NCBI GenBank assembly: GCA_964429135.1
Contig: CAYSAU010000004.1
Span: 127,028 to 191,027, forward strand
Direction: 5' to 3'
DNA length: 64,000 bases
Source: an uncultured Prolixibacteraceae bacterium
Lineage (GTDB): Bacteria > Bacteroidota > Bacteroidia > Bacteroidales > FEN-979
The notes under the pieces were generated by a model. The model worked only from the letters and a program-made list of their open reading frames with translations. It was not told the DNA's origin and ran no database searches. Made by a program: the position numbers and the translations under genes. This document shows, in pieces, positions 17,196 to 59,076 of this stretch (position 1 is its first letter; the number at the start of each line of letters is the position of its first letter).

Positions 17196-17364
17196 ACCAG
17201 AGATATTTGTTTTCTGAATGGATGTAAAACTAATGCCTTTGCAAGAGGTTTTCAAGGATTAACTCGTATCTGTCGATCATTGATTAAAAACCGTTAAGCT
17301 TAATTTTGTTTCCGTAACTTAGATAAAAATGTAAATATAGTTTATTAAAATATTGAAAACAAGT

Positions 17365-33315: not shown

Positions 33316-33440
33316 TTAACGGAATGTTAATAAATCGTTGAAGAATTTTCAGGAATTATATGGATATTTGTATTTCTAATAGAATACGCTTCGATTATTC
33401 TTTTGAATTTTATGATCTGAAAAAAATTAAATACGGTTTT

Positions 33441-47800: not shown

Positions 47801-49889
47801 AGGTCAGGTGAATTTCCAGGATCAATCCACAGGAGCTGGTTCTGCCATCACAGATCATTACTGGATCTTTGAACCAGGTTATACCTCCACCCTGGTCAAC
47901 CCGACTCATGTATTTCCGGTAACCAATATGAAATACTTTGTTCAACTGATCGTCACCGATAATTTCGGATGTAAGGATACCATCGGTGACAGTGTGTTTG
48001 TGAAACCCGGGTTCAGTTTTACCTTTACCAATGATACGGTTTGTCTGGGTTATCCGACCCATTTCAATCCCATCAACAATGCTGAAGGGGATAGCCTTTA
48101 CTCTGTGGCCTGGAATTTCGGAGATCCGAATTCAGGACCGGCAAATATTTCATACCAGTACAGACCTCAGCATATTTTCACCCAACCCGGATTATATTCC
48201 GTGAAAATGAAAGCATGGAATTCCGATAACTGTGTGGATAGCATTTACAGGGATATACAGGTATTTGCGCCGCCCAAAGCTGCTTTTGCCTTCCAGAACC
48301 CGCCCTGCGACAGTACGGTATATTTCCATGATTCCACGATGATTACAGGTAACGGGACCATTGCCAGCTGGGAGTGGAGATTCGGTGACGGAACACCTCC
48401 TCTGATTATTCCAGCTCCCGGTCCGGGAAGCACTTCTCATTTATATGTTAACGCGGGCTATTATCCAGTGACGCTGATCATTACCAATACAAGTGGATGT
48501 GTTGACAGTCTGACAAAGATCGTACAAAGATTCCCATGCATCAAAGCAGTATTTGAATATCCAGACACCCTGCGATGTGCCCGTTATCAGATCTCATTCT
48601 CTGACAGCTCACTGCCGGTTTCCATGATCACTCAATGGCATTGGAAATGGGGTGACGGAAAGGATACTACCTATACCAGTCATGGGTCACCGATTACTCA
48701 TATCTATGCAGATTCGGGAAGATATGCGGTTACTCTGGCCATACGGGCTTTGCTTGATGGGGTCACGATCAAGGACAGCATGACAAGATTTGTCACTGTT
48801 CATCCGACACCCTACTCCCTCTTTTCAAATATGGGCGTCTGTCTGAATCAACCGACCATCTTCCTGGATACTTCCAGAACATTCGGAGAACCTATTAAAC
48901 AATGGAACTGGGAATTCGGGGAACCAACATCCGGTGTTAATGACACTTCCACAAAACAGAATCCTGTTCATAAATATATGAATAAAGGTCTTTATGATGT
49001 AGAACTTCTGGTCATGAACCGTTTCGGTTGTAAAGATTCACTGACCAAAACCACCCGGGTTTATGGTTTGCCTGAAGCCCATTTTGCCAGTTCGGTAGCT
49101 TGTACCGGAGATCCAACTTATTTCACCGATAATTCGATCCTGTCAGATACCATAGCGGGTTTCTGGGCATGGAATTTTGGCGAGCTAAATTCTCAGAAAG
49201 ATACCTCCAACCTCCAGAATCCTGAATACAGATATAGAACGGAAGGTGATTACCTGGTTCGGTTTATTGTGAAAGATTACTATGGTTGCAAGGACACCAT
49301 TGATTCTACCATCAGGGTGAACATTACTCCGACCAGCGCCTTTACTTTTACAGAGAATTTTGACGGACGCCAGGGTAAAGTGAAGCTGAATAACCATTCG
49401 GATGGAGCCACGGTTTACAATTGGGATTTTGGCAACGGAATGACTTCTACTGAGGATAATCCCATTGTGAGTTATACGGAAGATGGAACATACATCATCA
49501 AACTGATTGCCTTGAACCAGTTTGATTGTTCTGACACCACTTTCTTCGAGTACAAATTGTTGTTTAAAGGACTATATGTACCTAATGCCTTCTCACCAAC
49601 CAGTACCATTCTTGCAGTGAGGCTGTTCCAACCTGTTGGCATGAATCTGAAGCAGTATCATATTACAGTGTTTGACAGTTGGGGTCATCTGATGTGGGAA
49701 TCCACCAAACTTGACGATAAAGGAAGACCGGCTGAAGGATGGGATGGTACCTATAACGGGAATATCATGCCTCAGGGGAATTATATGTGGAAAATCAAAG
49801 CCCTTTTTGTTGATGATTCTCCATGGAACGGCTCTGATATCGGTGTAGGCGAATATAGTACCATGGGCTCTGTGACATTAATCAGATAA
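41805..49889 (+). CDS. giant cell-surface protein with about 28 PKD repeats and a T9SS type B (gliding-motility-associated, CHU_C-type) C-terminal domain
   Basis: It is 2694 aa with a signal peptide. I counted about 28 occurrences of the W-x-F-G-D-G/P PKD core motif, each in an ~85-90 aa unit with paired Cys. The C-terminus YVPNAFSPTS...VFDSWGHLMWES...GWDGTYNGNIMPQGNYMWKIKA matches the type B sorting domain. Confidence 0.88.
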   Translation: MFHRFIRFALLATLLTTSMFRIAAQPCADTEPRITGPDVVCASLTNTITYITPAISGHNYSWTITRTSTGSGGWSVVGSTTTNQLDIRWTAPGNYLLTLTEGVSASPCTPVQTTLSVTVQPYLVAYFTYVATSECFNNIVDFQGDRSSPPSGDPTLTYNWTFTDGSWTTTSNIANPQISFPSTPGVTYEATLRVSKTDAFGRVWEDAITDYIYVDPNKYKPIALFTATPVGCLYDGIRFDASASQPTHVITSESILHFTWDFGDGNVVTYPGTQPIVVHNYTTYGNYTVLLTVTNTKYCTETTTPYILNVANTIPLSQFTLSPACLNEQTVFDPRNSITPTGTITDLFWTFGDGSVATTHDVNELVNHTYTELDIPQPATLRVRNSLNCLSEIYQLPVTVNRSPRAVFTHGNACAGNPVTFTNTSQPEGGSSIVLHEWDFGDGNTSNEVNPIHLYTGTGTFPVTLTVTNNDGCRNITSDVITVSPRPDVEFTATLGSSPFVMNFQEVLNSTQFVGNNLVWDFGDGSGTTGPTPVHSYPGPGTFLVTLTGTDMMTQCPNTVQHSVTLGAIPSAYFSAIPDEQCQGSTISFVPQIPPGGFIQDEDWYFNDGSLPNPVHYDFPNTPAFPVHTFNSSGTYLVERYVNRGTANEAYHSLYVTIHQLPTAMFTWFSDPSWTHQLFACSGQPVYFHDLSNSEEPPGVIYKWYWDFDDPASGPDQFSTLKDPIHTFIGAGPFNVSLTVTDNLRDCKSTVTHQVIINPPIPVEFTYTNNNCVNQLAYFTPNPALIPSDYTWLWNFGDGFSINTPGSVSHLYSAVGVYPVTLTLTDQYGCTKSITHDITIIPGPIANFTFTSPTCHGQPIQFTDLSYVPNPYPDIITAWAWDFGDGVGTSTLKDPVYTYPTFNPGGYYVSLTVTTNRGCTATRTYLVQPIPSPAADFKIVPLTPACAGQTAQFQDDSQTNGVDIASWSWDFGDPGSGTGNYSTAQNPIHLFSAPGTYMVSLTVKNVNNCSNTRIKPITINTPPTADFSATEACQGTNTVFTDNSTTPAGTNITTYTWDFGDGFGGTGPNPQHAYATYGTYYVRLTILNTDLCINETVKPVFVHPNPLPDFSFSPSTCIGNPVSFTNLSTMPPGNGFSDRPDIWTWDFGDGSLPVTINYPDNPNIVHTFLGTAPSHIVTLTVTSNTGCVASIQKTVNSVPSPDANFSYSGSQCADQAIQFTDQTSEAGGGAIQSWYWTFGDPLSGASNTSTLRNPIHTFIGGPGTYTVTLLVTNTNGCTSTRSYDVIINMKPVSNFTATTPCENSPTIFTNTSTPNAAAIVSSFWEFGDGGTSNQSSPTYTYLTYGIKNVKLTVTNSNGCIHDTTKQVSVYPKPTASFTYSANACIGNPVNFVNHSTVPGSMSSYINTWVWDFNDGSPVQTITYPDNPDVTHTFLGTATSFTVRLTVTTTAGCTNFIDQTVNLVPSPVANFSYSSTNCIYQSVQFTDQTQTAGGSNIQFWSWNFDDPGSGSNNFSQLQNPVHIFQSSGTKTITLIVTSMNGCKDTVTKDLTINARPVSQFSATTACLGSVTTFTDESTPPSGASIVSHFWEFGDGGTSSIANPTYTYLLAGNHNVTLTVTTNQGCTKDTTIQVTVLGKPISSFTYTSPNCSTDSVYFTDHSSTPHGSITKWEWNFQDGSPVVTRNYPESPNVAHKFPNGGTFNVKLTITTSDDCVSEKTLPVQVEFAPLANFSFAANACALSPIQFTDNSQPNGGAPVVNWNWNFGDPGSGSNNTSIVQNPTHAFTAGGTYDVYLIVTNVNGCRDTIQKSITVNNAPVAIFTADTSCLTSPTQFIDQSTTSPGNIIAWAWNFGDPASGTNNTSTLQNPTHIYNSPGTYTVLLTVTNTATCTKDTSMQVTVNPKPVALFSYSASCVGDSTQFTDLSIAPGSSVTSWLWDFNDGSPTVNQQNPMHAFMTSGTFQVKLVVTNLSNCKDSVIIPVVTRPTPTAAFQYVNFFCPAGQVNFQDQSTGAGSAITDHYWIFEPGYTSTLVNPTHVFPVTNMKYFVQLIVTDNFGCKDTIGDSVFVKPGFSFTFTNDTVCLGYPTHFNPINNAEGDSLYSVAWNFGDPNSGPANISYQYRPQHIFTQPGLYSVKMKAWNSDNCVDSIYRDIQVFAPPKAAFAFQNPPCDSTVYFHDSTMITGNGTIASWEWRFGDGTPPLIIPAPGPGSTSHLYVNAGYYPVTLIITNTSGCVDSLTKIVQRFPCIKAVFEYPDTLRCARYQISFSDSSLPVSMITQWHWKWGDGKDTTYTSHGSPITHIYADSGRYAVTLAIRALLDGVTIKDSMTRFVTVHPTPYSLFSNMGVCLNQPTIFLDTSRTFGEPIKQWNWEFGEPTSGVNDTSTKQNPVHKYMNKGLYDVELLVMNRFGCKDSLTKTTRVYGLPEAHFASSVACTGDPTYFTDNSILSDTIAGFWAWNFGELNSQKDTSNLQNPEYRYRTEGDYLVRFIVKDYYGCKDTIDSTIRVNITPTSAFTFTENFDGRQGKVKLNNHSDGATVYNWDFGNGMTSTEDNPIVSYTEDGTYIIKLIALNQFDCSDTTFFEYKLLFKGLYVPNAFSPTSTILAVRLFQPVGMNLKQYHITVFDSWGHLMWESTKLDDKGRPAEGWDGTYNGNIMPQGNYMWKIKALFVDDSPWNGSDIGVGEYSTMGSVTLIR
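45111..47505 (+). repeat. three tandem copies of a ~800-nt super-repeat, each encoding three PKD domains
   Basis: Units start at about 45111, 45914 and 46710. Within each unit the PKD cores follow the same order: F(G/N/Q)DGS(P/L) with YP(D/E)(N/S)P, then F(G/D)DP.SG..N.S, then a third PKD. The third is EFGDGGTS in units 1-2 and a second GDP-type core in unit 3. Boundaries are approximate. Confidence 0.7.
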
Positions 49890-49908: not shown

Positions 49909-51018
49909 ATGAAAAGAAGCATTATATATCCATTCCTGTTGTTATTGGGATCACTTTTTCTCAATCTGGCGGCCCATGGGCAGGACATGAACTACTCCCA
50001 GTATTTCAGCACACCTATCTATTATAATCCGGCTTTTACCGGTCTGAATACCGGTTTAAGGGCAAGGTTTTTATTCAGGGATCAATGGCCAAGTTTACCC
50101 ATTGATTATAAGTCTTATTATTTTTCGGCAGACTTGGGTGATCGTAACCTGCCCGGATCAGGTGGGTTGGGAATAACCATCAATTCGGATACGCCTGGTA
50201 TTGGGTTGATCAATAACCTTTCTGCCGCCCTGAATATCGGCGTCCGCATTCCTATCACTGCTTTTCTGGTGGCCCAGGTTGGGATCAAAGCGGCTGTAAT
50301 GCAGAGAAAAATTAACTGGGAGAAACTGGTGTTTGCTGATAACCTGGATCCACGCTATGGCAATATTTATCAGACTTCTTTTGTTGCACCTGATGCCAAT
50401 AAACGGGTGGTTCCTGATTTCGGCGCTGGAGGTATCCTTCAGTTCATGAGTCCGAATTCTAATATTTCAGGGAATGTGGGATTTGCTGTGGATCATATTT
50501 TCAGACCGGATGTCGGATTTCTTTCCACCGGCGCTTCTCCTTATCCCCGCAAATGGGTTGGGCATGCCGATATCGTTATTTCAGCCGGTTCACCCGGCTC
50601 TACCTCAACTCAATATCGTGGTTCTGATGAACCGTTGAAGATAAATATCGGGGCTTTATATCAGAATCAGGCCGATCTGAATTCACTGCAGGTGGGTTTA
50701 AATCTGTTAAAATTTAATATCTATTTGGGAGGATGGTATAAAACCACCATGACTGGTCTTCCAAACAGTATTCTTGCATTGGTAGCCGGGTACCGATATA
50801 TGTTCCAGGATAACATGAGCATTAAATTCATGTATTCCTATGACCTTCAGATTTCCGGTGCGCTCCAGGGTACTGGGGGGGCTCATGAAATCAGTCTCGT
50901 TCTGGAGTTTGATAAATTATCTTTATTTGGCGGAGGTGGAAGTGGGGGTGGATACCTCCCCGGTGGTGGCGGACGTTCACGTAACGGCGGAGCCATGGAA
51001 TGTCCTTCCTTCTATTAA
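49909..51018 (+). CDS. PorP/SprF family type IX secretion system membrane protein
   Basis: It has a signal peptide, then QDMNYSQYFSTPIYYNPAFTG, which is the family hallmark. It has a beta-barrel-like alternating pattern and a Gly-rich tail ending ECPSFY. It lies immediately downstream of a type B CTD gene. Confidence 0.85.
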   Translation: MKRSIIYPFLLLLGSLFLNLAAHGQDMNYSQYFSTPIYYNPAFTGLNTGLRARFLFRDQWPSLPIDYKSYYFSADLGDRNLPGSGGLGITINSDTPGIGLINNLSAALNIGVRIPITAFLVAQVGIKAAVMQRKINWEKLVFADNLDPRYGNIYQTSFVAPDANKRVVPDFGAGGILQFMSPNSNISGNVGFAVDHIFRPDVGFLSTGASPYPRKWVGHADIVISAGSPGSTSTQYRGSDEPLKINIGALYQNQADLNSLQVGLNLLKFNIYLGGWYKTTMTGLPNSILALVAGYRYMFQDNMSIKFMYSYDLQISGALQGTGGAHEISLVLEFDKLSLFGGGGSGGGYLPGGGGRSRNGGAMECPSFY

Positions 51019-51031
51019 TATCACCTACAGA

Positions 51032-53014
51032 ATGGATTTTCCTTTCATTCTTGTATTGCTGATTCTAACTATTTTCATCCTCATCCTGCCTTCCAGGGTT
51101 CGTTTTTTCTATACTCTTTTTGTGACAGGACTGATCATTGTGATCACCTCCATACCCGCTGTTGATACCCTGTTTCATGGGTCAAGGTCTTCTTTGGTTT
51201 TTTATGACCAGGAATTGCTGGGTACGGTGACTTTTACACTCGATGGTCTTAGCGCATTTTTTATCCTGCTGACCAACTTCTCCGTCTTCATGGGCCTGCT
51301 TTATTCAAATGGGTATCTGAAGTCATATCAGAAAAATAAAACCAGGGCCAGCTTGTCTTTGCATTATTTTAGCTATTGCTGGTTGCACCTTTCCATGCTG
51401 GCTGTGCTGATGCTTCGCGACGGACTTGCTTTTTTGATTGCCTGGGAATTGATGGCTGTATCCTCCTTTATGCTGATTCTTTTTGACGCTGAAATCAGAA
51501 CAAACCTGAAAATAGCTGTAAATTATCTGATACAGATGCATATTGGATTGGTATTGTTAGTCATAGCCTTTCTTATGGAAGGAATAGATACTGGCCATTT
51601 TGGTTTTGACGGGCTGACGACTTATTTTTCCAGGCATCCCAATGCACCCTTATGTTTTCTTTTCTTTGCCGGATTCGCGATTAAGGCTGGCTTTATTCCC
51701 TTCCATACCTGGCTTCCGGAAGCACATCCAGCAGCTCCTTCTCATGTTTCAGGGGTCATGTCAGGAGTGATGATTAAAATGGGAATATATGGTATCGTCC
51801 GGGTGCTTACTTATGTTCAGTCTGATTTTATAACCATTGGAATGACTTTGCTGATCATTTCTGCTCTGACTGGCTTATATGGGGTGATGATGGCAATTGT
51901 TCAGCATGACCTGAAAAAGCTACTGGCCTATCACAGTATTGAAAACATTGGCATCATAGGGATTGGTTTGGGATTGGGATTACTGGGATTGGGATTACAT
52001 CGACCACCCCTCGTAATACTAGGATTTGCAGGCAGTTTGTTACATGTGCTTAACCATTCTTTGTTTAAGCCCTTATTGTTTTTCAGCGCAGGTTCCGTTT
52101 ACAAGGCTTATCATACAAGAAATATAGAACAGCTTGGTGGTGTGATTCATAAAATGCCCAAAACCTCGGGTTTATTTATGATAGGCGCATTATCCATTTG
52201 CGGACTTCCGCCTCTGAATGGATTCATCTCAGAGTTCCTTATCTATTATGGTTTGATTATTGGAATGTCAGCAACAGTGGTTTATTATTCCATCTCCTTT
52301 CTCCTGACCATCATTGCTTTAACGCTCATCGGTGGACTGGCTATTTTCTGTTTTACCAAAGCCTCGGGTATAGTTTTCCTCGGATCTGGCAGAACGCGTA
52401 TTGATCATGAAATAAAGGAAGTTGAAACTGGGATGTTAATCCCCCAGTATCTGATCTCCTTCATGATCATTCTCATCGGATTTATTCCCATACTATTTAT
52501 TAATCCTCTTTTGGGCATAGTTTCTTCTGTTTTTCAAGTTCCTACGGGAGAACTTGCGACAACGCTATTACCGGTTCTTGATAAGATTGTTTTGCTGAGC
52601 GTTGTCCTGATTCTTTTCGTTATTGTTTTATTGTGGGTAAGGAAGCGGAAGCTGAATTCAGCCAATGTATTCACTGCGGATACTTGGGGATGCGGATATA
52701 CTGCCGCGACAACACGTCAGCAATATTCGGCTACTTCCTATGCTGCCAATTATGCCGAATTGGCTCATCCGGTTTTACAGGAAAAAACGGACTACGCTGA
52801 AATTCATGAAGAGGATATTTTTCCTGGTAAACGTTCATTTGCCTTTCATCCATTGGATATATTCAAATCGATTCTGAATAAGATCACAGACTATTCCATG
52901 TTGGTGTTAAAAAAAATCGCCCGCCTGCAAACTGGTAACATTCAGCATTATATTCTCTATGCCTTCATTTTTATTCTGGTTATTTTTGTTTTGCTTTACC
53001 TGGAACTGATATAA
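51032..53014 (+). CDS. antiporter-like membrane subunit (HyfB / NuoL-like; EhrA-like)
   Basis: The start is placed at the ATG at 51032 (MDFPFILV); the ORF-track start at 50840 lies inside porP/sprF. It has IAWELMAVSSF (TM5 Glu), AIKAGFIPFHTWLPEAHPAAPSHVS (TM7 Lys), SIENIG and HSLFKPLLFFSAGS (TM12 Lys). Confidence 0.85.
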   Translation: MDFPFILVLLILTIFILILPSRVRFFYTLFVTGLIIVITSIPAVDTLFHGSRSSLVFYDQELLGTVTFTLDGLSAFFILLTNFSVFMGLLYSNGYLKSYQKNKTRASLSLHYFSYCWLHLSMLAVLMLRDGLAFLIAWELMAVSSFMLILFDAEIRTNLKIAVNYLIQMHIGLVLLVIAFLMEGIDTGHFGFDGLTTYFSRHPNAPLCFLFFAGFAIKAGFIPFHTWLPEAHPAAPSHVSGVMSGVMIKMGIYGIVRVLTYVQSDFITIGMTLLIISALTGLYGVMMAIVQHDLKKLLAYHSIENIGIIGIGLGLGLLGLGLHRPPLVILGFAGSLLHVLNHSLFKPLLFFSAGSVYKAYHTRNIEQLGGVIHKMPKTSGLFMIGALSICGLPPLNGFISEFLIYYGLIIGMSATVVYYSISFLLTIIALTLIGGLAIFCFTKASGIVFLGSGRTRIDHEIKEVETGMLIPQYLISFMIILIGFIPILFINPLLGIVSSVFQVPTGELATTLLPVLDKIVLLSVVLILFVIVLLWVRKRKLNSANVFTADTWGCGYTAATTRQQYSATSYAANYAELAHPVLQEKTDYAEIHEEDIFPGKRSFAFHPLDIFKSILNKITDYSMLVLKKIARLQTGNIQHYILYAFIFILVIFVLLYLELI

Positions 53015-53925
53015 TGGGATGTCTGCTTGCTATCGTCACTGCCCTGTTTTTTCCCGGGATCATCCTCCGGATGAAAAGTTTGTCAAGCGGTCGGAAAGGG
53101 CCAAAGATAATGCAGCCCTGGAGAGACATAATGGTATTGTTACAAAAAGGAAGCGTTTTTAGCAGGGTGTCGAGTTATGTCTTTCGCATCGCTCCGGTAA
53201 TTTATTTATCCACCATTTTTTGTGCACTGCTGTTGTTGCCCTTTCCCGGGCTTCCATCAGTCTTTGGTTTTGATGGTGATTTTGTGCTTTTTGCCTATAT
53301 GCTTGCCCTGGGAAAGTTTTTATTTATCCTATCAGCGCTTGATACCGGAAGCAGTTTTGAAGGAATGGGGGCAAACCGTGAAGCCTTGTACAGTATGCTA
53401 ACCGAACCTGCTTTTTTCATTCTATTTGGGACCTTGTCATTGCTTACTGGTTATACATCCATGCAGCAGATCTTCGAATCCTTCCAGTTTGTAGGGCATA
53501 ACTCATTTATAATCGGGTTTATTGCGGTTTACCTCCTGATTCAGATCGCCATGATTGAGAATAGCCGTATGCCGGTGGATGATCCAAAGACACACTTGGA
53601 GCTGACCATGGTTCACGAAGTGATGATTCTTGACCATAGCGGATTCGACCTGGCCTTGATCCATATCGGAACAGCATTGAAATTTGCCATGTACGGGTCG
53701 CTGGTGGCAAACTTCCTGATCCCTGTCGAATGGGCGCTGTCAGCAAGAATAGCCCTATTTTTTGCCATACAATTGACATTTGCCGCTATGATAGGGGTGA
53801 TGGAGTCATTCCGCGCACGGAAAAAGCTGGCCAATAATCCGCAATTCATAGTCACCCTGAGCGTCATTGCACTGGTCGCTTTTATTCTGGTTTTATTGAT
53901 CACTTTCAATATGATCGCATCATGA
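53014..53925 (+). CDS. NuoH-like membrane subunit (HyfC / HycD-like; EhrB-like)
   Basis: It is a 303 aa polytopic protein with DTGSSFEGMGANREALYSMLTEPAFF and MPVDDPKTHLELTMVHEVM, typical of HycD/HyfC. An ATGA-type overlap joins it to the previous gene. Confidence 0.8.
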   Translation: MGCLLAIVTALFFPGIILRMKSLSSGRKGPKIMQPWRDIMVLLQKGSVFSRVSSYVFRIAPVIYLSTIFCALLLLPFPGLPSVFGFDGDFVLFAYMLALGKFLFILSALDTGSSFEGMGANREALYSMLTEPAFFILFGTLSLLTGYTSMQQIFESFQFVGHNSFIIGFIAVYLLIQIAMIENSRMPVDDPKTHLELTMVHEVMILDHSGFDLALIHIGTALKFAMYGSLVANFLIPVEWALSARIALFFAIQLTFAAMIGVMESFRARKKLANNPQFIVTLSVIALVAFILVLLITFNMIAS

Positions 53926-54539
53926 CCGTAATGCTCGTTATCGTTTTTGCAATTACCCTGATTTACCTGAGTATGACAAAACGTTTTCTCATCTTTACCG
54001 GACTCATCGGGTTTCAGGGAGTTTTGCTGTTTGTCCTTTCACTGCTTGAACTTCATTCCATTACCCTGGGAACCCTGCTGTTTGTGGCCATTGAAACTTT
54101 GGTTTTCAAAGTGATCGTAGTTCCCTACCTGCTCTTCCGGATCATTGATAAGACGGGTGAAGCCCGCGTACACGATAAAGCGCTTCCTGGTTTTTACAGT
54201 CTTTTATTTATAAGCCTTGGCCTGATACTTAGTATTGTGGTTTCTTTTTCCATGAATTCCAGACCATCCACGATGTTATATTTTATTGTCGCCTTCTTTG
54301 CAGTATATACAGGGCTGTTTATCATTATCTCCCATAGAAAAATATTCTCTCATCTCGTTGGTTTTTTGGTCATTGAGAATGCTGTGTTGCTGCTTTCCCT
54401 TGCCATAGGAAGTGAAATGCCTATGCTGATCAACATTGGCATTCTCCTCGATATTTTTGTCAGTGTATTAATCCTGGGAATTTTCGTGATGAAACTTAAG
54501 CAAACAACGCATGAATTAACAATGTTGAAAGATGATTAA
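53922..54539 (+). CDS. NuoK-like membrane subunit (HyfE-like; EhrC-like)
   Basis: It is 205 aa with about 6 TM segments and membrane-embedded Glu residues in FVAIETLVF and LVIENAVLLLSLA. It overlaps the previous gene by 4 nt. Confidence 0.75.
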   Translation: MTVMLVIVFAITLIYLSMTKRFLIFTGLIGFQGVLLFVLSLLELHSITLGTLLFVAIETLVFKVIVVPYLLFRIIDKTGEARVHDKALPGFYSLLFISLGLILSIVVSFSMNSRPSTMLYFIVAFFAVYTGLFIIISHRKIFSHLVGFLVIENAVLLLSLAIGSEMPMLINIGILLDIFVSVLILGIFVMKLKQTTHELTMLKDD

Positions 54540-54594
54540 TGCAATGTTTGAAGAATGTTATAATAAAAAGACAACTCTTAATCGTAACCGGTAA

Positions 54595-56034
54595 ATGTCA
54601 TCAGTCGGATATATTTTGATGGTTTTTTTCGCGGTTTTTCTCCTGCTGACGATTATCGTGGGATTATTGCACAGTAAAGTGATTGCCAGAGGGTTGACGA
54701 TCCTTTTTGTGATCATTCATCTGCTTTTCACTGTTTATTGCTGGATGCATCTGGGTGAAACGGTTCTCGAGTATTTTACTTTCGATCCGCTGGGTGTATT
54801 GTTATTGTCTGTCCTTTCATTACTCACGATAACCACAGTTTATCATGGTTTTATTTATGTAAAGGAAGATTCTCCGCGTATCTATGCCATCTATCATGCT
54901 GCATTAATGGCGTTAATTATCGCCATGTCGGGGGCTTATCTTGCCAATGGCATGACTACGGTTTGGATCTTTGTTGAGGCCACGACCCTCGCAGTGGCTG
55001 CGCTGATCTATCATGACCGGTCATCCATCGCCCTTGAGGCAACCTGGAAATATGTTTTTGTCTGTTCAGTCGGAATTGCCCTAGCTTATCTCGGGATACT
55101 TTTCCTCGGATTTACGGTGCATGATGGTCGGTTGCTTCATCTTTCTTTCAGCAACATCATTGAAATTGCCCGCATGGCCAACCCGCTTTACCTGAAAATT
55201 GCTTTTGTGTTTGTCCTGGTGGGATACAGCACCAAAATGGGATTATTTCCCATGCATACGGTTACTGTGGATGCTCATACTGTGGCGCCTCCGCCGATCA
55301 GCGCTTTTATTTCTACTACCCTTATGAACGTCGGATTCCTAGCTATTTTTCGCATCTATGCGCTTTTCTCGGCTACTACCATTCTTCCATTCATGAACCA
55401 TGTTTTGATTTTGTCAGGCGTGTTATCCTTGCTTGTTTCAGCAGGATATATGCTCAAAGCAAAACACAATAAAAGGATGCTCGCTTATTCAAGCCTTGAA
55501 AATATGGGCATAGTCGCCATTGCACTGGGAATTGGAGGCATCGGTTATTATGCCGCCATCCTTCATATCGTCCTTCATTCTTTTACAAAAGCAGGATTGT
55601 TCTACCAGATCGGTCAATCTTACAAGGTTATGGGTACCTATAAACTCGATGAATCAGGGAATTATATGACGCTATATCCTGCCGGAGCCGTTGCCCTTCT
55701 GCTTGGTTTTCTATGCATCACTGCTATTCCCCCTTCCGGAATGTTCATTTCGGAATTATATTTGATGAAAGCCATGATTATTTCCGGAAACTGGGTATTG
55801 CTGGCACTGACGGCTATTTTGCTTTGCTTTGTCTTATATGCCTTACTCACCCGTGTTCTTCATATTGTTTATTCCCAGCCAAGGGAAAAGCCATTGCATG
55901 AACCCAGAAAAGTGAATCCCTGGCAATCGGTCAGTCAATATATCCTCTTTGGCCTGGTCATTTTAATCTGTTTTATGCAACCTGAGCCATTGCGCCATCT
56001 GATTGAATCCATCATCAATGCCTTACCAAAATAA
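54595..56034 (+). CDS. antiporter-like membrane subunit (HyfF / NuoN/M-like; EhrD-like)
   Basis: It has FVEATTLAVAAL (Glu), STKMGLFPMHTVTVDAHTVAPPPISAF (Lys), SSLENMG and HSFTKAGLFYQIG (Lys). Confidence 0.82.
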   Translation: MSSVGYILMVFFAVFLLLTIIVGLLHSKVIARGLTILFVIIHLLFTVYCWMHLGETVLEYFTFDPLGVLLLSVLSLLTITTVYHGFIYVKEDSPRIYAIYHAALMALIIAMSGAYLANGMTTVWIFVEATTLAVAALIYHDRSSIALEATWKYVFVCSVGIALAYLGILFLGFTVHDGRLLHLSFSNIIEIARMANPLYLKIAFVFVLVGYSTKMGLFPMHTVTVDAHTVAPPPISAFISTTLMNVGFLAIFRIYALFSATTILPFMNHVLILSGVLSLLVSAGYMLKAKHNKRMLAYSSLENMGIVAIALGIGGIGYYAAILHIVLHSFTKAGLFYQIGQSYKVMGTYKLDESGNYMTLYPAGAVALLLGFLCITAIPPSGMFISELYLMKAMIISGNWVLLALTAILLCFVLYALLTRVLHIVYSQPREKPLHEPRKVNPWQSVSQYILFGLVILICFMQPEPLRHLIESIINALPK

Positions 56035-57587
56035 TGAAGGAAACCCGATATATCGAGCTGTTTTCTAATCCCGGGAGTGTTCTCCTCGAGGAGATACCCA
56101 TCATGGGATATGATGATTTTTTGTCCTTTACCAATTTGTTGATGGGTGAAGAAGGAACCCATTGCGCAGCCTACTTCGTCTTGCCTCAGAGAGACAAATT
56201 CCGGTTTATTTGCTGTATGGCTGCCGATGAAAATCACGCCCTTGTGATCTATTCTCATGAACAGGAAATCAGCCCCCTCCCATCACTACCCTCCATATCA
56301 GAGAAGCATTTTCAATTTCATGTCTTTGAAAGGGAAATCCATGAACAGTATGGCATCGGGTTTACCGGTCATCCCTGGCTGAAACCCATCCGATATCCTT
56401 ATAACAGGGCAGATCAGTCGGCCATCATGGATTGTTATCCCTTCTATTCCATTGAAGGGGAGGAGCTTCATGAAGTGGGTGTTGGCCCGGTTCATGCCGG
56501 GATCATTGAACCAGGGCATTTTCGCTTTATTGGTAATGGTGAAAAGGTTCTTCATCTGGAGATACACCTCGGATATCAGCACAGGGGTTTGGAACGACTG
56601 ATGGTTGAAAAGCAGGATATTCTTGCCCGGACTTTACTTGCTGAAAGCATCGCCGGTGATACCGTAGTGGGTCACACAATGGCTTATTCAGGCTTGATGG
56701 AATCACTTTCGGGTAAAACTATTTCTTCCCGCCTGTCAGTAGAAAGGATCATTGCCCTGGAACTCGAACGTATAGGGATTCATATTGGCGATACGGCTGC
56801 AATATGTACGGATATTGCTTATCAGTTCGGACAGGTCGTAAATGAGGCACTCCGGACCATCATTATCAATACTACCCAGTTATGGTGCGGGAATCGTTTT
56901 GGCAAAGGACTTATTCGTCCGGGAAGAACGCATTATCCCCTGCAGGAACCCCTTGCTAAAACCATTATGAAAAATCTGGATGAGGTGGAAGAACGTTATC
57001 TTCATATGGCCGACAGAATTTTCTCCCTGCCAAGCGTATTGGGACGTTTTGAAAGTATCGGGAAACTTTCCACCATGCAGGCCACCCTGATCGGAGCCGT
57101 GGGTATGACGGCAAGAACCAGCGGTATGCACCGCGATGTTCGCTGGTCTCATCCTTTCGGCGCTTATGTTAATCATCCTTATAACCCCGTGATTCTGAAA
57201 AAAGGAGATGTCTGGTCAAGGGCCATGCTTCGTAAAATGGAAGTGGTAAAATCTATTGAAATTATCAGGCAACTGTTGAAGGAGTTAAAGACAAATGATG
57301 TACACCTTGCGAATCCCGGAATCGCTGATTCAAAATATGGTAGCGAAAACCCAAAGTATTTCCTTGCCCCTTCTTCATTTGCTGTTTCCCTTGTTGAAGG
57401 CTGGCGTGGAGAAATTTGTCATATCGCGGTGACCGATGACGATGGCAAGATCATTTCTTATAAGATAAAAGATCCCTCGTTTCATAACTGGCAGGCATTA
57501 GCATTGGCAGTCAGAAACCAGGAAATCTCGGATTTCCCATTATGTAATAAGAGCTTTAATCTTTCATATTGTGGACATGACCTTTGA
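56034..57587 (+). CDS. HycE/HyfG-like large subunit (NuoC-NuoD fusion) lacking NiFe-binding cysteines (EhrL-like)
   Basis: It has a NuoC-like N-terminus (FEREIHEQYGIGFTGHP) and the NuoD/HycE-like motifs VGPVHAGIIEPGHFRF and GYQHRGLERL. The L1 position reads SIAGDTVVGH instead of R-x-C-G-x-C-x-x-x-H. The C-terminus reads NLSYCGHDL-stop instead of DPCxxCxxR plus extension. There is no CxxC anywhere in the 517 aa. Confidence 0.82.
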   Translation: MKETRYIELFSNPGSVLLEEIPIMGYDDFLSFTNLLMGEEGTHCAAYFVLPQRDKFRFICCMAADENHALVIYSHEQEISPLPSLPSISEKHFQFHVFEREIHEQYGIGFTGHPWLKPIRYPYNRADQSAIMDCYPFYSIEGEELHEVGVGPVHAGIIEPGHFRFIGNGEKVLHLEIHLGYQHRGLERLMVEKQDILARTLLAESIAGDTVVGHTMAYSGLMESLSGKTISSRLSVERIIALELERIGIHIGDTAAICTDIAYQFGQVVNEALRTIIINTTQLWCGNRFGKGLIRPGRTHYPLQEPLAKTIMKNLDEVEERYLHMADRIFSLPSVLGRFESIGKLSTMQATLIGAVGMTARTSGMHRDVRWSHPFGAYVNHPYNPVILKKGDVWSRAMLRKMEVVKSIEIIRQLLKELKTNDVHLANPGIADSKYGSENPKYFLAPSSFAVSLVEGWRGEICHIAVTDDDGKIISYKIKDPSFHNWQALALAVRNQEISDFPLCNKSFNLSYCGHDL

Positions 57588-57712
57588 AACGGAATTCAAT
57601 AATGTATCGTTACGTCAAAATATCCATGCAAGAATAATGGATCATGATGGTTCCAATCCCTGCATCTGCCTGATAATTTTTTTGCTTAGCAACGATCAAA
57701 GCACTATCCAAA

Positions 57713-58462
57713 ATGCGTGAATTTAAAATTTTCAGGAGTCATGGGAAGCAGTTTATTCCCGATTTGCGGAATGCCGAATTGCCCGGAATCTTTCGCGGAA
57801 GACCGGTAATCAGCGAGGATATAGTTCCAGATGAAGCCAGCAAACTCTCAAAAATTTGTCCTGTTGGCGCGATCCAGGCCGCCCCCTTTTCCCTTGATCT
57901 CGGCCGATGTGTTTTTTGCGGGGAGTGTGAGTTTTTCTTGCCGGGCAAGGTTTGTTTTACCAATGATTATCGCCTGGCTGCCAACAGGAGGGAAGACCTG
58001 ATCATTAAAGCTGGAGAAAATCAATCGCTTCGATTGTTTGAACCAGCGGTAAACCCTGAAATACGGAAAGTTTTCAAACATTCTCTAAAATTGCGACAGG
58101 TTTCTGCCGGTGGGGATAATTCCTGTGAAATGGAGTTGAATGCTGCCGGCAATGTCAATTTCGATATGGGAAGATACGGAATACAGTTTGTTGCATCACC
58201 CCGTCATGCGGATGGGATGGTCTTAACAGGACCCCTTACGCGAAACATGTCAGAAGCGATCAAACTCACCTGGGAAGCAATCCCTTCGCCGAAAATCTTA
58301 ATTCTGGTTGGATCTGATGCCATCAGCGGAGGGTTGTTTTTAGAAAGTCAGGCAATTAACCGCCAATTTTTGGAAGATCATCCCGCAGATTTATATCTGC
58401 CCGGAAATCCGACCCACCCCCTGACCTTCATCAATGGGATCATGGATCTGCTTGGGATTTAA
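57713..58462 (+). CDS. fusion of a degenerate ferredoxin (HycF/HyfH-like) and a NuoB/HycG-like small subunit lacking most FeS ligands (EhrS-like)
   Basis: The N-terminal half has FRGRP...SKICPVGAI...CVFCGECEFFLP, which leaves one complete 4Fe-4S ligand set. The C-terminal half has FVASPRHADGMVLTGPLTR, the NuoB/HycG hallmark. The cluster-ligand positions read GGDNSCEME, GSDAISGG and PGNPTHP. Confidence 0.8.
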   Translation: MREFKIFRSHGKQFIPDLRNAELPGIFRGRPVISEDIVPDEASKLSKICPVGAIQAAPFSLDLGRCVFCGECEFFLPGKVCFTNDYRLAANRREDLIIKAGENQSLRLFEPAVNPEIRKVFKHSLKLRQVSAGGDNSCEMELNAAGNVNFDMGRYGIQFVASPRHADGMVLTGPLTRNMSEAIKLTWEAIPSPKILILVGSDAISGGLFLESQAINRQFLEDHPADLYLPGNPTHPLTFINGIMDLLGI

Positions 58463-59076
58463 TATACTCCGTTTTTTCTGATGTCTGACAATATGGTCAC
58501 AATGGGGGAGCACCAGTGCTTAATTCCCATTCCTGCAGCTTTTGCCGTATATTTTCGGGTACGGATTACCGTTTTTGTGTTAGGATCGAAATAAGTCACC
58601 CAGACATTGGCCAGCTCGGTGGTTTTATCAAAGCTCTCAACGATGATCACGAGACCTATCCCGTCTTTTTCAGCGGGAGTATATTTTTTAACCATTTTTT
58701 CCACCTTATCCTCGGTAAACTGGGGTTTTTCCTTGTCGTTGTTGCCAAAGAGATCGGAAATGTCGATATTGGAATTACGTTCACCAACAACCGATAAGTC
58801 GATGAATACATAGTTCATGCCAAGCAATTTTTTCAAATCCATGGGGAAAGTGGTGAACCTGCCTTCTGCAAAAGCGGTATTCCAGGCTGGAATATCAAAG
58901 GAGAGCATCTTCTCGCGATCCATAAATGGGCCATAAAATCGTGCCTGGGAAAAATCAAGCCCAAACCATATCAACGAGCGTGCATTTCTGACATCCCCAA
59001 GGGTATATTTCGATTGAGAAAGCCCTGTCTGGGAGAAAATTGCCAGGAGCAAGGACAGGATAAATAATTTTTTCAT
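58459..59076 (-). CDS. hypothetical secreted protein
   Basis: It has a signal peptide (MKKLFILSLLLAIFSQTGLSQ) and is 205 aa long. I recognise no family. Its stop overlaps the convergent small-subunit stop in a TTAA. Confidence 0.5.
   Translation of the reverse strand: MKKLFILSLLLAIFSQTGLSQSKYTLGDVRNARSLIWFGLDFSQARFYGPFMDREKMLSFDIPAWNTAFAEGRFTTFPMDLKKLLGMNYVFIDLSVVGERNSNIDISDLFGNNDKEKPQFTEDKVEKMVKKYTPAEKDGIGLVIIVESFDKTTELANVWVTYFDPNTKTVIRTRKYTAKAAGMGIKHWCSPIVTILSDIRKNGVY

Follow-up and report, generated by a model that had tools for sequence, protein, structure and literature searches.

What could drive a membrane arm of the complex I type when the peripheral arm attached to it has lost most of its redox cofactors? 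This question is raised by six co-directional genes, encoding four membrane subunits, a large subunit and a small subunit, at positions 51032-58462 on the forward strand of the 64,000-nucleotide stretch of DNA from an uncultured Prolixibacteraceae bacterium analysed in the present study (hereafter, the window; Table 1).

Gene organization and identity of the operon

The gene set and order proposed in an initial annotation of this locus were confirmed by domain, NCBIfam and PDB matches. Three of the five junctions overlap (ehrA/ehrB by 1 nt, ehrB/ehrC by 4 nt and ehrD/ehrL by 1 nt), not the four said to overlap or abut, and gaps of 55 nt and 125 nt are observed between ehrC and ehrD and between ehrL and ehrS, respectively. 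The start of ehrA was taken as 51032 because the listed open reading frame, beginning at 50840, runs into a PorP/SprF gene.

Table 1. Genes and motifs of the operon, with positions in the window
Feature	Position	Strand	Description	Basis or conservation
ehrA	51032..53014	+	HyfB/HycC/NuoL-type antiporter-like subunit, 660 aa	
ehrB	53014..53925	+	HycD/MbhM/NuoH-type subunit, 303 aa	
ehrC	53922..54539	+	HyfE-like small membrane subunit, 205 aa	
ehrD	54595..56034	+	HyfF/NuoN-type antiporter-like subunit, 479 aa	
ehrL	56034..57587	+	NuoC-NuoD/HycE-type large subunit, 517 aa, without NiFe ligands	
ehrS	57713..58462	+	Reduced HycF/NuoI-type ferredoxin domain fused to HycG/MbhJ/NuoB-type domain	
Remodelled L1 motif	56646..56675	+	SIAGDTVVGH (vs RxCGxCxxxH)	Alignment to HycE 'drvCgiCgfaH'
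Remodelled C-terminal L2 region	57531..57584	+	DFPLCNKSFNLSYCGHDL (vs ...DPCxxCxxR)	Alignment to HycE
Remaining [4Fe-4S] site	57857..57943	+	C49-P50 and C66-x2-C69-x2-C72	73/73 relatives
Former N2 ligands 1 and 2	58109..58135	+	GGDNSCEME (relatives GSCNGCE)	Alignments to MbhJ, HycG, Nqo6
Former N2 ligand 3	58310..58333	+	GSDAISGG, Cys to Asp202	Same type of alignments; D202 in 68/73
Former N2 ligand 4	58400..58420	+	PGNPTHP, Cys to Asn232	Alignment; N232 in 73/73

The locus is almost certainly an ehrABCDLS operon encoding an Ehr complex, kin of the group-4 membrane hydrogenases and complex I, with a large subunit that, judged from its motifs, would be unable to bind NiFe. The Ehr-type layout suggested by the initial annotation agrees with published subunit descriptions, in which EhrA resembles NuoL, EhrB carries the annotation hydrogenlyase subunit 4, EhrC resembles HyfE, and the large and small subunits are EhrL and EhrS (PMC7894505; PMC13194489). 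The name Ehr stands for Ech-hydrogenase-related or energy-converting-hydrogenase-related. Known examples include EhrA-1/A-2/B/C/D/L/S of Geobacter sulfurreducens (GSU0739-45), the six-gene clusters of Sulfobacillus and Rv0082-87 of M. tuberculosis; the present clade was compared with the Geobacter and Mycobacterium complexes by published description. Shared features are the NuoL/HyfB-, HycD- and HyfE-like subunits, the second antiporter-like subunit, the large and small subunits, a large subunit without L1/L2 cysteine motifs and the lack of linked maturation genes, and the two EhrA paralogues of Geobacter recur in relatives such as Flavihumibacter profundi. The six-gene version of Sulfobacillus likewise lacks the L1/L2 motifs (PMC4378227), and HydDB classes Ehr as a non-hydrogenase (PMC5037454). 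The function of Ehr, described in the initial annotation as unassigned, was still termed unknown in 2023 (PMC10284858).

The membrane arm

EhrA matches Pfam PF00361 (6e-48), the PDB chains HycC (1.8e-55) and MbhH (7.3e-53), the Mrp structures MrpA (1.9e-34) and MrpD (2e-25) and, at 486 bits and under the model cutoff, NCBIfam hydrogenase-4 subunit B. Its key residues (TM5 E139, TM7 K218, TM8 K249, TM11 H338/H342/K346 and TM12 E401) are all invariant in 62 of 62 relatives, and a conserved WGCGY motif is carried in a C-terminal extension. EhrD (PF00361, 2.5e-40; HyfF models, 6e-67; MbhH, 8.7e-25; MbsH, 3e-23) has the corresponding TM5 E128, TM7 K214, TM11 K332 and TM12 E387, and in the alignment Asn245 replaces the central TM8 lysine of MbhH and MbsH; these five residues are invariant in 77/77 relatives. 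Thus, the TM5 glutamate and TM7 lysine claimed earlier for both antiporter-like subunits were recovered, and the lysines of 'LFKPLLF' and 'FTKAGLF', previously placed in TM12, belong to TM11, TM12 carrying a glutamate in both proteins.

EhrB (PF00146, 2.5e-23) has HycD (1.5e-20) and MbhM (1.9e-19) as top PDB matches and reaches only 7.7e-6 against NdhA of NDH-1, thereby resembling HycD/MbhM rather than NuoH. The loop between TM5 and TM6 is acidic and conserved (ENSRMPVDDPKTHLELTMVHEVMILDHSG), and E123, E131, E182, D189, D190, E196, E202, D207 and D212 show at least 95% conservation. The only model matched by EhrC was the NCBIfam hydrogenase-4 membrane subunit (HyfE; 2.6e-11); neither a Pfam match nor a PDB sequence match was obtained for the window protein, and its relatives match PF00420 (NuoK family) weakly. 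The membrane carboxylates E58, E152 and D177, together with K63, are kept in 75 of 75 relatives, in line with the membrane glutamates attributed earlier to this subunit. EhrC and EhrD are the most conserved proteins (approximately 85% identity to the closest relatives, compared with ~70% for EhrL and ~60% for EhrS). The membrane arm, initially described as intact-looking, is so for the invariant Glu/Lys sets of EhrA, EhrC and EhrD, but not for the TM8 position of EhrD.

The peripheral arm

EhrL contains PF00329 and PF00346 and matches HycE (2.8e-31), MbhL (5.6e-27) and Nqo4 (3.8e-26); the best fold match of its AF2 model (pTM 0.80) was 7z0s_E (TM 0.76). The loss of the four NiFe cysteines, already noted in the initial annotation, was reproduced in the alignment with HycE and is family-wide, the L1 and L2 cysteines being missing in 80/80 relatives. 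The remodelled motifs are themselves conserved. In the L1 region, G208 and D209 are present in all 80 relatives and H214 in 75. In L2, DPCxxCxxR has become NLSYCGHDL, and D500, F501, P502, N505, K506, S507, L510, S511, Y512, G514 and D516 are invariant among the 78 relatives having this region, with C513 in 71 and C504 in 72 of them. Several non-canonical cysteines of EhrL are 85-99% conserved and none is invariant; at position 167 the window protein has Gly, where Cys is otherwise found. The quinone-ligating tyrosine (Nqo4 Y87) has no equivalent, the aligned position being G208. Overall, 34% of EhrL columns are at least 90% conserved.

EhrS consists of a ferredoxin domain (residues ~1-115) and a HycG/MbhJ/NuoB-type domain (residues ~120-249), with matches to PF01058 (8e-19), a Fer4 remnant (1e-3), MbhJ (4.1e-23), HycG (8e-21), NuoI (2.6e-4) and HycF (3.5e-3). 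In the AF2 model (pLDDT 88, pTM 0.87), the C-terminal half superimposes on MbhJ with a TM of 0.84 and an rmsd of 1.7 Å. In relatives the ferredoxin ligands read C38x3C42x2C45x3C49P and C66x2C69x2C72x3C76P. Only C49, C66, C69 and C72 are invariant among the cluster cysteines of EhrS, and this quartet is, according to the alignments, the ligand set of the N6b-type or 'medial' (middle) cluster. The former distal-cluster positions are now V38, A42, L45 and L76 and drift within the clade, whereas the former N2 (proximal) positions have settled as Asp/Asp/Asn. Of the N2 ligands, one cysteine of four is kept in the window protein (D135, C138, D202, N232); D135 occurs in 72/73 relatives, only 45 have C138 and the other 28 have Ala, Thr, Asn or Val there, and the N2 ligand set is absent in 73/73. 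C138 is also the only cysteine that the alignments place at any L1, L2 or N2 ligand position. These results bear out the earlier count of three missing proximal ligands and sharpen "at most one ferredoxin-type cluster" to exactly one site; the redox arm has lost the NiFe, distal and N2 cofactors but, with an invariant [4Fe-4S] site, is not entirely stripped.

Two hops, roughly 25 Å by established geometry, separate the medial cluster of complex I, MBH and FHL from the pocket, a distance too great for physiological electron transfer. By analogy with the cluster spacing in these homologous structures, the remaining cluster would be electronically isolated.

Linked genes and relatives

The window ORFs of 150 aa or more included no member of the hyp, hycI, fdh or CODH families; this size limit lies above small genes such as hypA and hypC, and within this range the earlier report of no hyp, endopeptidase, or formate or CO dehydrogenase partner holds. 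FDH, CODH, NuoEF and hyp were also absent from the top families of the 109 neighbours scanned, and no family of flanking genes extended beyond 10 of the 80 loci, the figure for the largest one.

Homologues at 60-73% identity numbered more than 120, and a relative is encoded in 576 genome stretches. Wherever the locus was untruncated in the 80 species-level Bacteroidota genomes kept, the genes stood in the order A-B-C-D-L-S with all six ORFs intact. The dN/dS values, 0.02-0.19 across the six genes (0.04-0.19 for ehrL), show that the whole operon is under strong purifying selection. Sister lineages at approximately 50% identity differ from the present clade, which has only the medial site and Asp/Asp/Asn, in having the full set of 12 cysteines that three clusters require; in the three-cluster sister clade, all cluster cysteines are present in 106 of 120 close relatives. 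The EhrL proteins of the three-cluster relatives nevertheless carry identical remodelled L1 and L2 motifs, and 117 of 151 clade-conserved columns are identical, with one fixed difference. Comparison of these sequences indicates that the loss of the distal and proximal clusters is specific to one derived, mostly Bacteroidota clade; in a neighbour-joining tree without support values, the family shows independent N2 loss outside this clade as well.

Comparison with related complexes

In MBH and MBS, all three [4Fe-4S] clusters are retained, ferredoxin is the electron donor and the Na+ module comprises MrpB/C/E/F/G-like subunits; the present operon encodes none of these subunits. The plan of an L/S module on a NuoH-like subunit with Mrp-type antiporter-like subunits is the same in Pyrococcus furiosus MBH (6CFW) and MBS/MBX (6U8Y), and MBS/MBX is an earlier known case of a large subunit lacking NiFe (PMC6349859). 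Hyf (HyfBCEFGHI) and FHL-1 (PDB 7Z0S) matched EhrA, EhrB, EhrL and EhrS best in sequence and fold, and the gene order is like that of E. coli hydrogenase-4; the present operon differs in its missing NiFe ligands, its fusion of HycF and HycG with one cluster, and its lack of HyfA, HyfD, FdhF and Hyp/HycI. Homologues of NuoL/M/N, NuoH, NuoC, NuoD, NuoB and part of NuoI, and the charged central residue axis, are shared with complex I and cyanobacterial NDH-1. N2, the quinone-ligating tyrosine, NuoA/NuoJ genes and NuoEFG are missing here, and EhrB is far nearer to HycD than to NuoH.

Discussion

Herein, we tentatively propose that the complex works as a cation/proton translocator independent of redox chemistry, and that its peripheral cap has been retained for a role in coupling, gating or sensing. 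Since no cluster is predicted next to the large-subunit pocket, an electron wire would be unable to drive the complex. The Mrp antiporter (6Z16, 7QRU) similarly has two PF00361 subunits with TM5 Glu and TM7 Lys and a small membrane subunit, recalling the weak NuoK-family matches of EhrC relatives; it works without electron input, and a gradient-driven mode is therefore a natural analogy. The series of conserved Glu, Lys and His residues is unbroken across the four membrane subunits, and in this proposal these subunits would move protons and/or Na+/K+, most likely by secondary, gradient-driven exchange like that of Mrp. The cap formed by EhrL and EhrS, seated on the NuoH-like subunit, would serve for coupling or gating. 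Conserved residues of the former NiFe pocket (D209, D516, Y512, H214) and the former N2 positions (D135, D202, N232) may together handle ions or protons at the point from which energy conversion starts in complex I, and the lone cluster could be structural or a sensor of redox state or O2. Several observations count against this reading. First, the cap is large and well conserved, more than a plug seems to require. Second, Mrp has neither a NuoH-like subunit nor a peripheral arm, and the Mrp-specific MrpB, E, F and G are missing here. Third, EhrD lacks the central TM8 lysine. Fourth, the three-cluster sister clade retains its cysteines, and the increase of Geobacter Ehr proteins on formate (PMC7894505) points to a possible redox connection for Ehr of the Geobacter type.

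Both parts of this fourth point also suit a rival view, which we consider unlikely, namely that of a pump that has remained redox-driven. Here, a soluble ferredoxin or flavodoxin would reduce the remaining, more exposed cluster, and electrons would pass on to an acceptor or cofactor that has escaped recognition; alternatively, the lost clusters would be replaced by a subunit whose gene lies elsewhere. The invariance of the four remaining ligands, the highly conserved former NiFe pocket and the additional EhrL cysteines are consistent with such a pump, and, since sister clades have a full three-cluster chain without a linked partner, the family could plausibly receive electrons from a soluble donor. 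However, the N2 ligands are gone from every relative and the leftover Cys138 is often replaced, a medial cluster would probably be too distant from the pocket, no partner gene recurs at the 80 loci, and the extra cysteines are not invariant, one being Gly in the window protein.

Less probable still is the reverse arrangement, in which a proton- or sodium-motive force drives a non-redox event in the cap, for example a vectorial reaction or the binding of a ligand in the cavity that once housed NiFe and N2 (such as CO2/bicarbonate or metal-ion handling), or in which the cap is a sensor reporting membrane energisation. The polar and acidic residues fixed in EhrS (D135, D202, N232) and EhrL (D209, S511, Y512, D516), and a cap under purifying selection, would suit this arrangement, but neither a catalytic domain nor a recurrent accessory gene was found, and no invariant pattern typical of known hydrolase or carbonic-anhydrase metal sites was seen. 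Also in favour, a SulP/STAS transporter and a PTS-EIIA protein lie directly upstream in one three-cluster relative (L083), although the SulP linkage is a single case.

That the genes are a relic, left by a dead hydrogenase and drifting under relaxed selection, is very improbable. The catalytic metal ligands and two clusters have indeed been lost, and Geobacter Ehr has been called non-functional in one paper (PMC13194489), whereas all of its subunits are detected by proteomics (PMC7894505). The conserved gene order and the low dN/dS argue that the operon is not a relic, dozens of charged membrane residues are invariant, and the intact ORFs likewise contradict the decaying pseudogenes that the initial annotation had allowed for. 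Finally, a misread canonical group-4 [NiFe] hydrogenase (Hyf or FHL-2 type) or complex I variant, as the top family and PDB matches (Hyf, HycE, MbhL, NuoD) and the public annotations 'Ni,Fe-hydrogenase III large subunit' or 'NADH-quinone oxidoreductase subunit C' would have it, is refuted by the alignments and virtually excluded, given the missing L1/L2 cysteines, N2 ligands and Tyr87 equivalent, the lack of a large hyp gene among the window ORFs scanned, and the NCBIfam scores, all of them far below the curated cutoffs.

Because the three-cluster relatives share the EhrL motifs and most clade-conserved columns, and because N2 has also been lost independently elsewhere, we argue from these sequences that electron transfer may be dispensable for the conserved core of the complex. 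The cluster cysteines are well kept in the sister clade, and electrons therefore presumably matter there. The one-cluster clade may therefore have changed its function rather than revealing an ancestral one.

Results

The six-gene set of the initial annotation, ehrA, ehrB, ehrC, ehrD, ehrL and ehrS (Ehr, energy-converting hydrogenase related), was confirmed together with the observation as a whole, with three small corrections. One of these concerns the gene junctions, of which three of five, instead of four, overlap or abut (TAATG, ATGA and TAATG), while 55 and 125 nt separate the genes at the other two. A convergent ORF overlaps the stop codon of ehrS by 4 nt, which sets the end of the operon at 58462; this ORF begins like a signal peptide and matched no Pfam family. 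Directly upstream of the operon are a gene for a giant protein, which combines 27 PKD repeats with a CHU_C type IX secretion signal, and a PorP/SprF gene whose end lies 13 nt before ehrA. No obvious promoter-like -7 element (TAnnTTTG) was observed between the PorP/SprF gene and ehrA in the window, and thus the ehr genes may be co-transcribed with the upstream PKD and PorP/SprF genes. The linkage of Ehr with these type IX secretion genes is not conserved in other genomes. Two more type IX cargo proteins with Por_Secre_tail, one of which also has a lamin-tail domain, and two large paralogous DUF4842 proteins are encoded in the window, which is otherwise an ordinary-looking Bacteroidota chromosome.

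Coordinates of the Ehr genes and of other features in the window and in related loci (L001 and the like)
Feature	Position	Strand	Remarks
ehrA	51032-53014	+	660 aa; listed ORF from 50840, the extra part overlapping the upstream gene
ehrB	53014-53925	+	303 aa
ehrC	53922-54539	+	205 aa
ehrD	54595-56034	+	479 aa
ehrL	56034-57587	+	517 aa
EhrL residue 167	56532-56534	+	Gly codon
ehrS	57713-58462	+	249 aa
Convergent ORF	58459-59076	-	205 aa
PKD-repeat protein	41805-49889		2694 aa
PorP/SprF gene	49909-51018		
Por_Secre_tail / DUF4842 genes	33360-37997, 37999-39636, 14031-17255, 17365-19653		
Small TPR protein downstream of ehrS	L001 4614-5141, L002 12538-13068, L005 7467-8009		same strand as ehrS
Tandem EhrA pair, Flavihumibacter profundi	L088 1444-3447 and 3447-5474		
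nos cluster and regulator, Flavihumibacter profundi	L088 17039-20753		
SulP/STAS and PTS_EIIA_2, Ignavibacteriaceae MAG	L083 1009-3441		same strand as the operon

Scans for sigma-70 promoters and terminators gave sites no more numerous than in shuffled sequence. A k-mer search upstream of ehrA in related loci recovered only the general Bacteroidota -7 element TAnnTTTG, in about one third of the loci, and no candidate regulator-binding motif emerged from the 200 bp upstream of ehrA. Within this 200 bp, TTTACTTTGCA, which contains the Bacteroidota -7 consensus, was observed in 17-20 of 56 related loci, and this indicates a dedicated promoter for the Ehr operon in the genomes concerned.

Using Pfam and NCBIfam, the subunits were assigned as two Proton_antipo_M proteins (HyfB-like and HyfF-like), one NADHdh, one HyfE-like protein (at 2.6e-11 only), a Complex1_30kDa and Complex1_49kDa fusion (EhrL), and a Fer4 remnant joined to Oxidored_q6 (EhrS). 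All NCBIfam scores were far under the curated cutoffs, and the scores against complex I cutoffs were 156 bits versus 360 for NuoD, 85 versus 116 for the nuoB family and 28 versus 305 for NuoH. The nearest solved relatives of EhrL were, in order, HycE (2.8e-31), MbhL and Nqo4; those of EhrA and EhrD were HycC and MbhH, those of EhrB were HycD and MbhM, and those of EhrS were MbhJ and HycG, the N-terminal 115 residues of EhrS weakly matching NuoI and HycF. For EhrC, no sequence relative was detectable in the PDB. The AlphaFold model of EhrL (pTM 0.80) had 7z0s_E as its top fold match (TM 0.76), and in that of EhrS (pLDDT 88) the C-terminal half fitted MbhJ at 1.7 Å rmsd. Since the best structural matches are only chains of FHL, MBH and complex I, at ~20-35% identity, a solved structure of a close Ehr relative appears to be absent.

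The predicted ion-translocating residues are largely retained. In EhrA, E139 (TM5), K218 (TM7), K249 (TM8), H338/H342/K346 (TM11) and E401 (TM12) were present in all 62 relatives, and in EhrD, E128, K214, K332 and E387 were present in all 77. The TM5 Glu and TM7 Lys initially reported for both antiporter-like subunits stand, whereas the supposed TM12 lysines are the TM11 lysine, TM12 carrying Glu in EhrA and EhrD. Asn245 of EhrD is invariant where MbhH and MbsH carry the central TM8 Lys. EhrB retains the acidic TM5-6 loop, and the NuoK-like subunit keeps its membrane Glu residues as claimed (E58 and E152 of EhrC), together with D177. A tandem duplicated EhrA, giving three antiporter-like subunits, was observed in 16 of 80 loci, including that of Flavihumibacter profundi; these pairs parallel EhrA-1 and EhrA-2 of Geobacter, whereas the window has a single EhrA.

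The peripheral arm lacks most of its cofactor ligands, in agreement with the first reading of the sequence. In the alignment, the NiFe cysteine motif L1 of HycE, RvCGiCgfaH, is replaced by SIAGDTVVGH in EhrL and the C-terminal DPCySCtdR (L2) by NLSYCGHDL, and Cys was found in the four L1/L2 ligand columns of none of 80 relatives. G208 and D209 are present in 80/80 relatives and H214 in 75/80, and hardly any variation is seen in the tail DFPxCNKSF(N/D)LSYCGxDL; the former NiFe active site is thus rebuilt and under selection, not eroding. The column of the quinone-ligating Tyr87 of Nqo4 holds G208 (80/80), and the equivalent of Nqo4 His38, H162, is present in EhrL but likewise in HycE. With both the NiFe ligands and the Tyr87 equivalent missing, the pocket can count neither as a hydrogenase site nor as a quinone site. 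A new metal site on the non-canonical cysteines C44, C60, C61, C167, C258, C285, C462, C504 and C513 was considered and is unlikely, as none is invariant and the window's EhrL is without C167. Residue 167 is Gly in the window versus Cys in 79 of 80 relatives (HFRFxCxGE), an oddity of this genome that argues against this Cys as an essential ligand.

In EhrS, three of the four ligands of the proximal [4Fe-4S] cluster N2 are lost, the positions reading D135, C138, D202 and N232 against MbhJ, HycG and Nqo6. Among 73 relatives the pattern was DCDN in 45, DADN in 14, others in 14 and CCCC in none. Because the remaining cysteine, C138, is kept in only 45/73, N2 is truly gone, while the other former ligand positions are fixed (D135 72/73, D202 68/73 and N232 73/73). 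Only C49-P and C66xxC69xxC72 are retained, with all four Cys in 73/73 relatives, so that one ferredoxin-type cluster remains, in keeping with the first description of at most one. In NuoI (Nqo9) of T. thermophilus complex I, the Cys-Pro of the first motif and the CxxCxxC of the second bind N6b, the middle of the N6a-N6b-N2 series. At positions 38, 42, 45 and 76, which are distal-cluster ligands in relatives, the residue drifts between small and hydrophobic types.

More than 120 database relatives of EhrL share 60-73% identity, and 576 stretches encode an EhrL relative in a scan with one genome per species. Conservation and synteny were examined in the best 80 of these 576 stretches, almost all labelled Bacteroidota (Bacteroidales, Prolixibacteraceae, Rikenellaceae, Saprospiraceae, Chitinophagaceae, Cyclobacteriaceae and Cytophagales), and the order A-B-C-D-L-S on one strand was observed in every one of the 80 loci uncut by a contig end. 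Conservation is highest in the membrane subunits: C and D of the closest relatives are ~85% identical to those of the window, whereas L reaches ~70% and S ~60%. The initial annotation had named frameshifts in orthologues as a sign of decaying pseudogenes; the ORFs are intact in related genomes, and pairwise dN/dS (NG86) was 0.02-0.19 across the six genes (0.04-0.19 for EhrL and 0.03-0.13 for EhrS), which together with the strong conservation rules out decay. A cultured carrier of the one-cluster type is Flavihumibacter profundi (GCA_020076305.1), whose EhrS reads GGDNSCEME, AGVDAISGG and PGNPVHP.

The reported lack of hyp, endopeptidase and formate or CO dehydrogenase genes held among the window ORFs of at least 150 aa, where no large Hyp, HycI, FDH or CODH was found. 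Neither a redox enzyme nor a maturation gene was found among 109 immediate neighbours scanned with Pfam or in the clusters of 439 flanking ORFs from the 80 loci, and the Ehr unit is self-contained. The flanks show lineage-local synteny only, namely gamma-glutamyltranspeptidase (GGT, 10), a small TPR protein (8) and GH109 (7). The TPR protein (~175 aa, with a signal-like N-terminus; 8/109 neighbours) is encoded directly downstream of ehrS and is absent in the window. In an Ignavibacteriaceae MAG, a SulP/STAS anion transporter and PTS_EIIA_2 lie directly upstream of a three-cluster operon, a single case that may be coincidental. The Flavihumibacter profundi locus also has, ~6 kb downstream of its Ehr genes, a Crp/Fnr-type regulator and a nos (nitrous-oxide reductase accessory) gene cluster, a linkage that is probably incidental.

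With EhrS as query, 3871 matches were obtained among 1.84 billion representative proteins, and in these cluster loss is graded. The closest relatives outside the window's clade (~50% identical) are the same fused protein with 12 Cys, a full three-cluster wire by ligand-column typing (C38x3C42x2C45x3C49P, C66x2C69x2C72x3C76P and all four N2 ligands). Other relatives have two clusters, medial and N2, and the window's clade has one. In a rough neighbour-joining tree without support values, window-type EhrS form a single clade, and this tree suggests additional independent N2 losses elsewhere in the family. Named three-cluster members are Bacteroidales, Ignavibacteriaceae, Myxococcota, Polyangiales and Bdellovibrionales MAGs, and their operons are likewise A-B-C-D-L-S without partners. 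An EhrL encoded beside a three-cluster EhrS (L081), 48% identical to that of the window, has the identical remodelled motifs AESIAGDTVVGH and DFPVCNKSFNLSYCGHDL. Of 151 EhrL columns at least 95% conserved in the one-cluster clade, 117 are unchanged in at least four of five three-cluster EhrL and one is a fixed difference; the membrane subunits of both types behave alike. Thus the NiFe ligands were lost and the pocket remodelled first, and the one-cluster clade gave up its Fe-S wire afterwards, the other parts of the machine staying nearly as they were.

Discussion

Ehr complexes occur across many phyla, including M. tuberculosis. By architecture and motifs, the present gene cluster is assigned as a further member of this known family; the Ehr interpretation offered initially is supported, as the subunit set, the A-B-C-D-L-S order and the loss of the L1/L2 cysteines match Ehr features. 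The nomenclature of Coppi 2005 is relayed in PMC7894505 and PMC13194489, and the subunit list matches that reported for Geobacter. The list also agrees with a syntenic six-gene set of Sulfobacillus that is without L1/L2 motifs (PMC4378227), and Ehr is set apart from hydrogenases in HydDB (PMC5037454). A pairing of FDH with Ehr has been proposed for Margulisbacteria and Saganbacteria (PMC6349859), whereas an FDH neighbour is absent at the window locus. We did not find a prior description of a whole clade reduced to one isolated cluster, with EhrL unchanged and three-cluster lineages as sisters.

In complex I, the medial cluster is one hop from N2, and N2 is one hop from the pocket. Given the loss of N2 and this spacing, we infer that the remaining cluster would be electronically isolated, ~25 Å from the pocket and too far for physiological electron transfer. 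This gap makes a pump driven by an electron wire unlikely in the one-cluster clade. For a membrane arm that is intact and under such strong constraint, the most economical function is ion translocation, and as there is no chemical energy input, gradient-driven exchange would be the natural mode. Herein, we tentatively propose, with somewhat less than even confidence, that the membrane arm performs a Mrp-like gradient-driven ion exchange. The cap that EhrL and EhrS form on the NuoH-like subunit would be retained for coupling or gating, the Asp/Asp/Asn site at the former convergence point of the four cluster ligands would be a candidate ion, proton or metal site, and the lone cluster would either have a structural role or sense redox state or oxygen. 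The Mrp pattern of TM5 Glu, TM7 Lys, TM8 Lys and TM12 Lys/Glu is present, except for Asn245 of EhrD in place of the TM8 Lys. The cluster differs from the MrpA-G set in having only MrpA/D-like subunits (PF00361) and EhrC, whose relatives match the NuoK family weakly; neither the Ehr cluster nor its flanks yielded MrpB, E, F or G. The complex would most likely be energetically like Mrp and is built like Hyf or MBH. Several observations stand against gradient-driven exchange. First, the cap is conserved beyond what a plug would seem to need. Second, the three-cluster sister clade has preserved its cluster cysteines well (all present in 106/120 close relatives). Third, Ehr proteins become more abundant in Geobacter on formate (PMC7894505).

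A further proposal, which we regard as rather doubtful, is that Ehr represents the first example of the full complex I/membrane-hydrogenase architecture, peripheral arm included, without electron transfer, with the former NiFe/N2 junction as an acidic gating site. This site would comprise D135, D202 and N232 of EhrS and D209, Y512 and D516 of EhrL, and would bind an ion or small ligand that triggers or gates the antiporter-like modules. The Fe-S clusters of other Ehr lineages would then be dispensable leftovers, and such dispensability would explain their piecemeal, repeated loss while all else stayed constant. It is unlikely that the window's Ehr is still a redox enzyme, using an unrecognised cofactor or a partner encoded elsewhere; the wire is complete in the sister clade, and the electron-transfer gap in the window's own clade weighs against such a role there. 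Less likely again is a machine that consumes the gradient to drive non-redox chemistry or sensing in the cap. A relic operon is highly improbable and was rejected on the intact ORFs and low dN/dS. A misread hydrogenase or complex I has next to no chance, ruled out by the ligand alignments and sub-cutoff family scores: EhrL and EhrS lack the L1/L2 motifs and proximal-cluster Cys set of group-4 [NiFe] hydrogenases, and the N2, Tyr87 and family-level scores of complex I (Nuo/NDH-1).

It is still debated how, in complex-I-type machines, peripheral-junction chemistry is coupled to ions moving tens of angstroms away. The one-cluster clade is a natural experiment in which the wire has been removed, yet the membrane arm, EhrL and the remodelled pocket are under strong selection, while sisters ~50% identical are wired. 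Comparison of the one- and three-cluster types would be a direct route to whether Ehr needs electrons, and if electrons are not needed, it would reveal another drive or gate for a complex-I-like membrane arm. EhrL relatives are present in hundreds of Bacteroidota genomes, of anaerobic and aerobic families alike, and this distribution, together with the cultured Flavihumibacter profundi, makes the question experimentally accessible and ecologically broad. Ehr complexes were described in 2005, according to PMC13194489, and the single-cluster variant turns an old question about them into a testable comparison.
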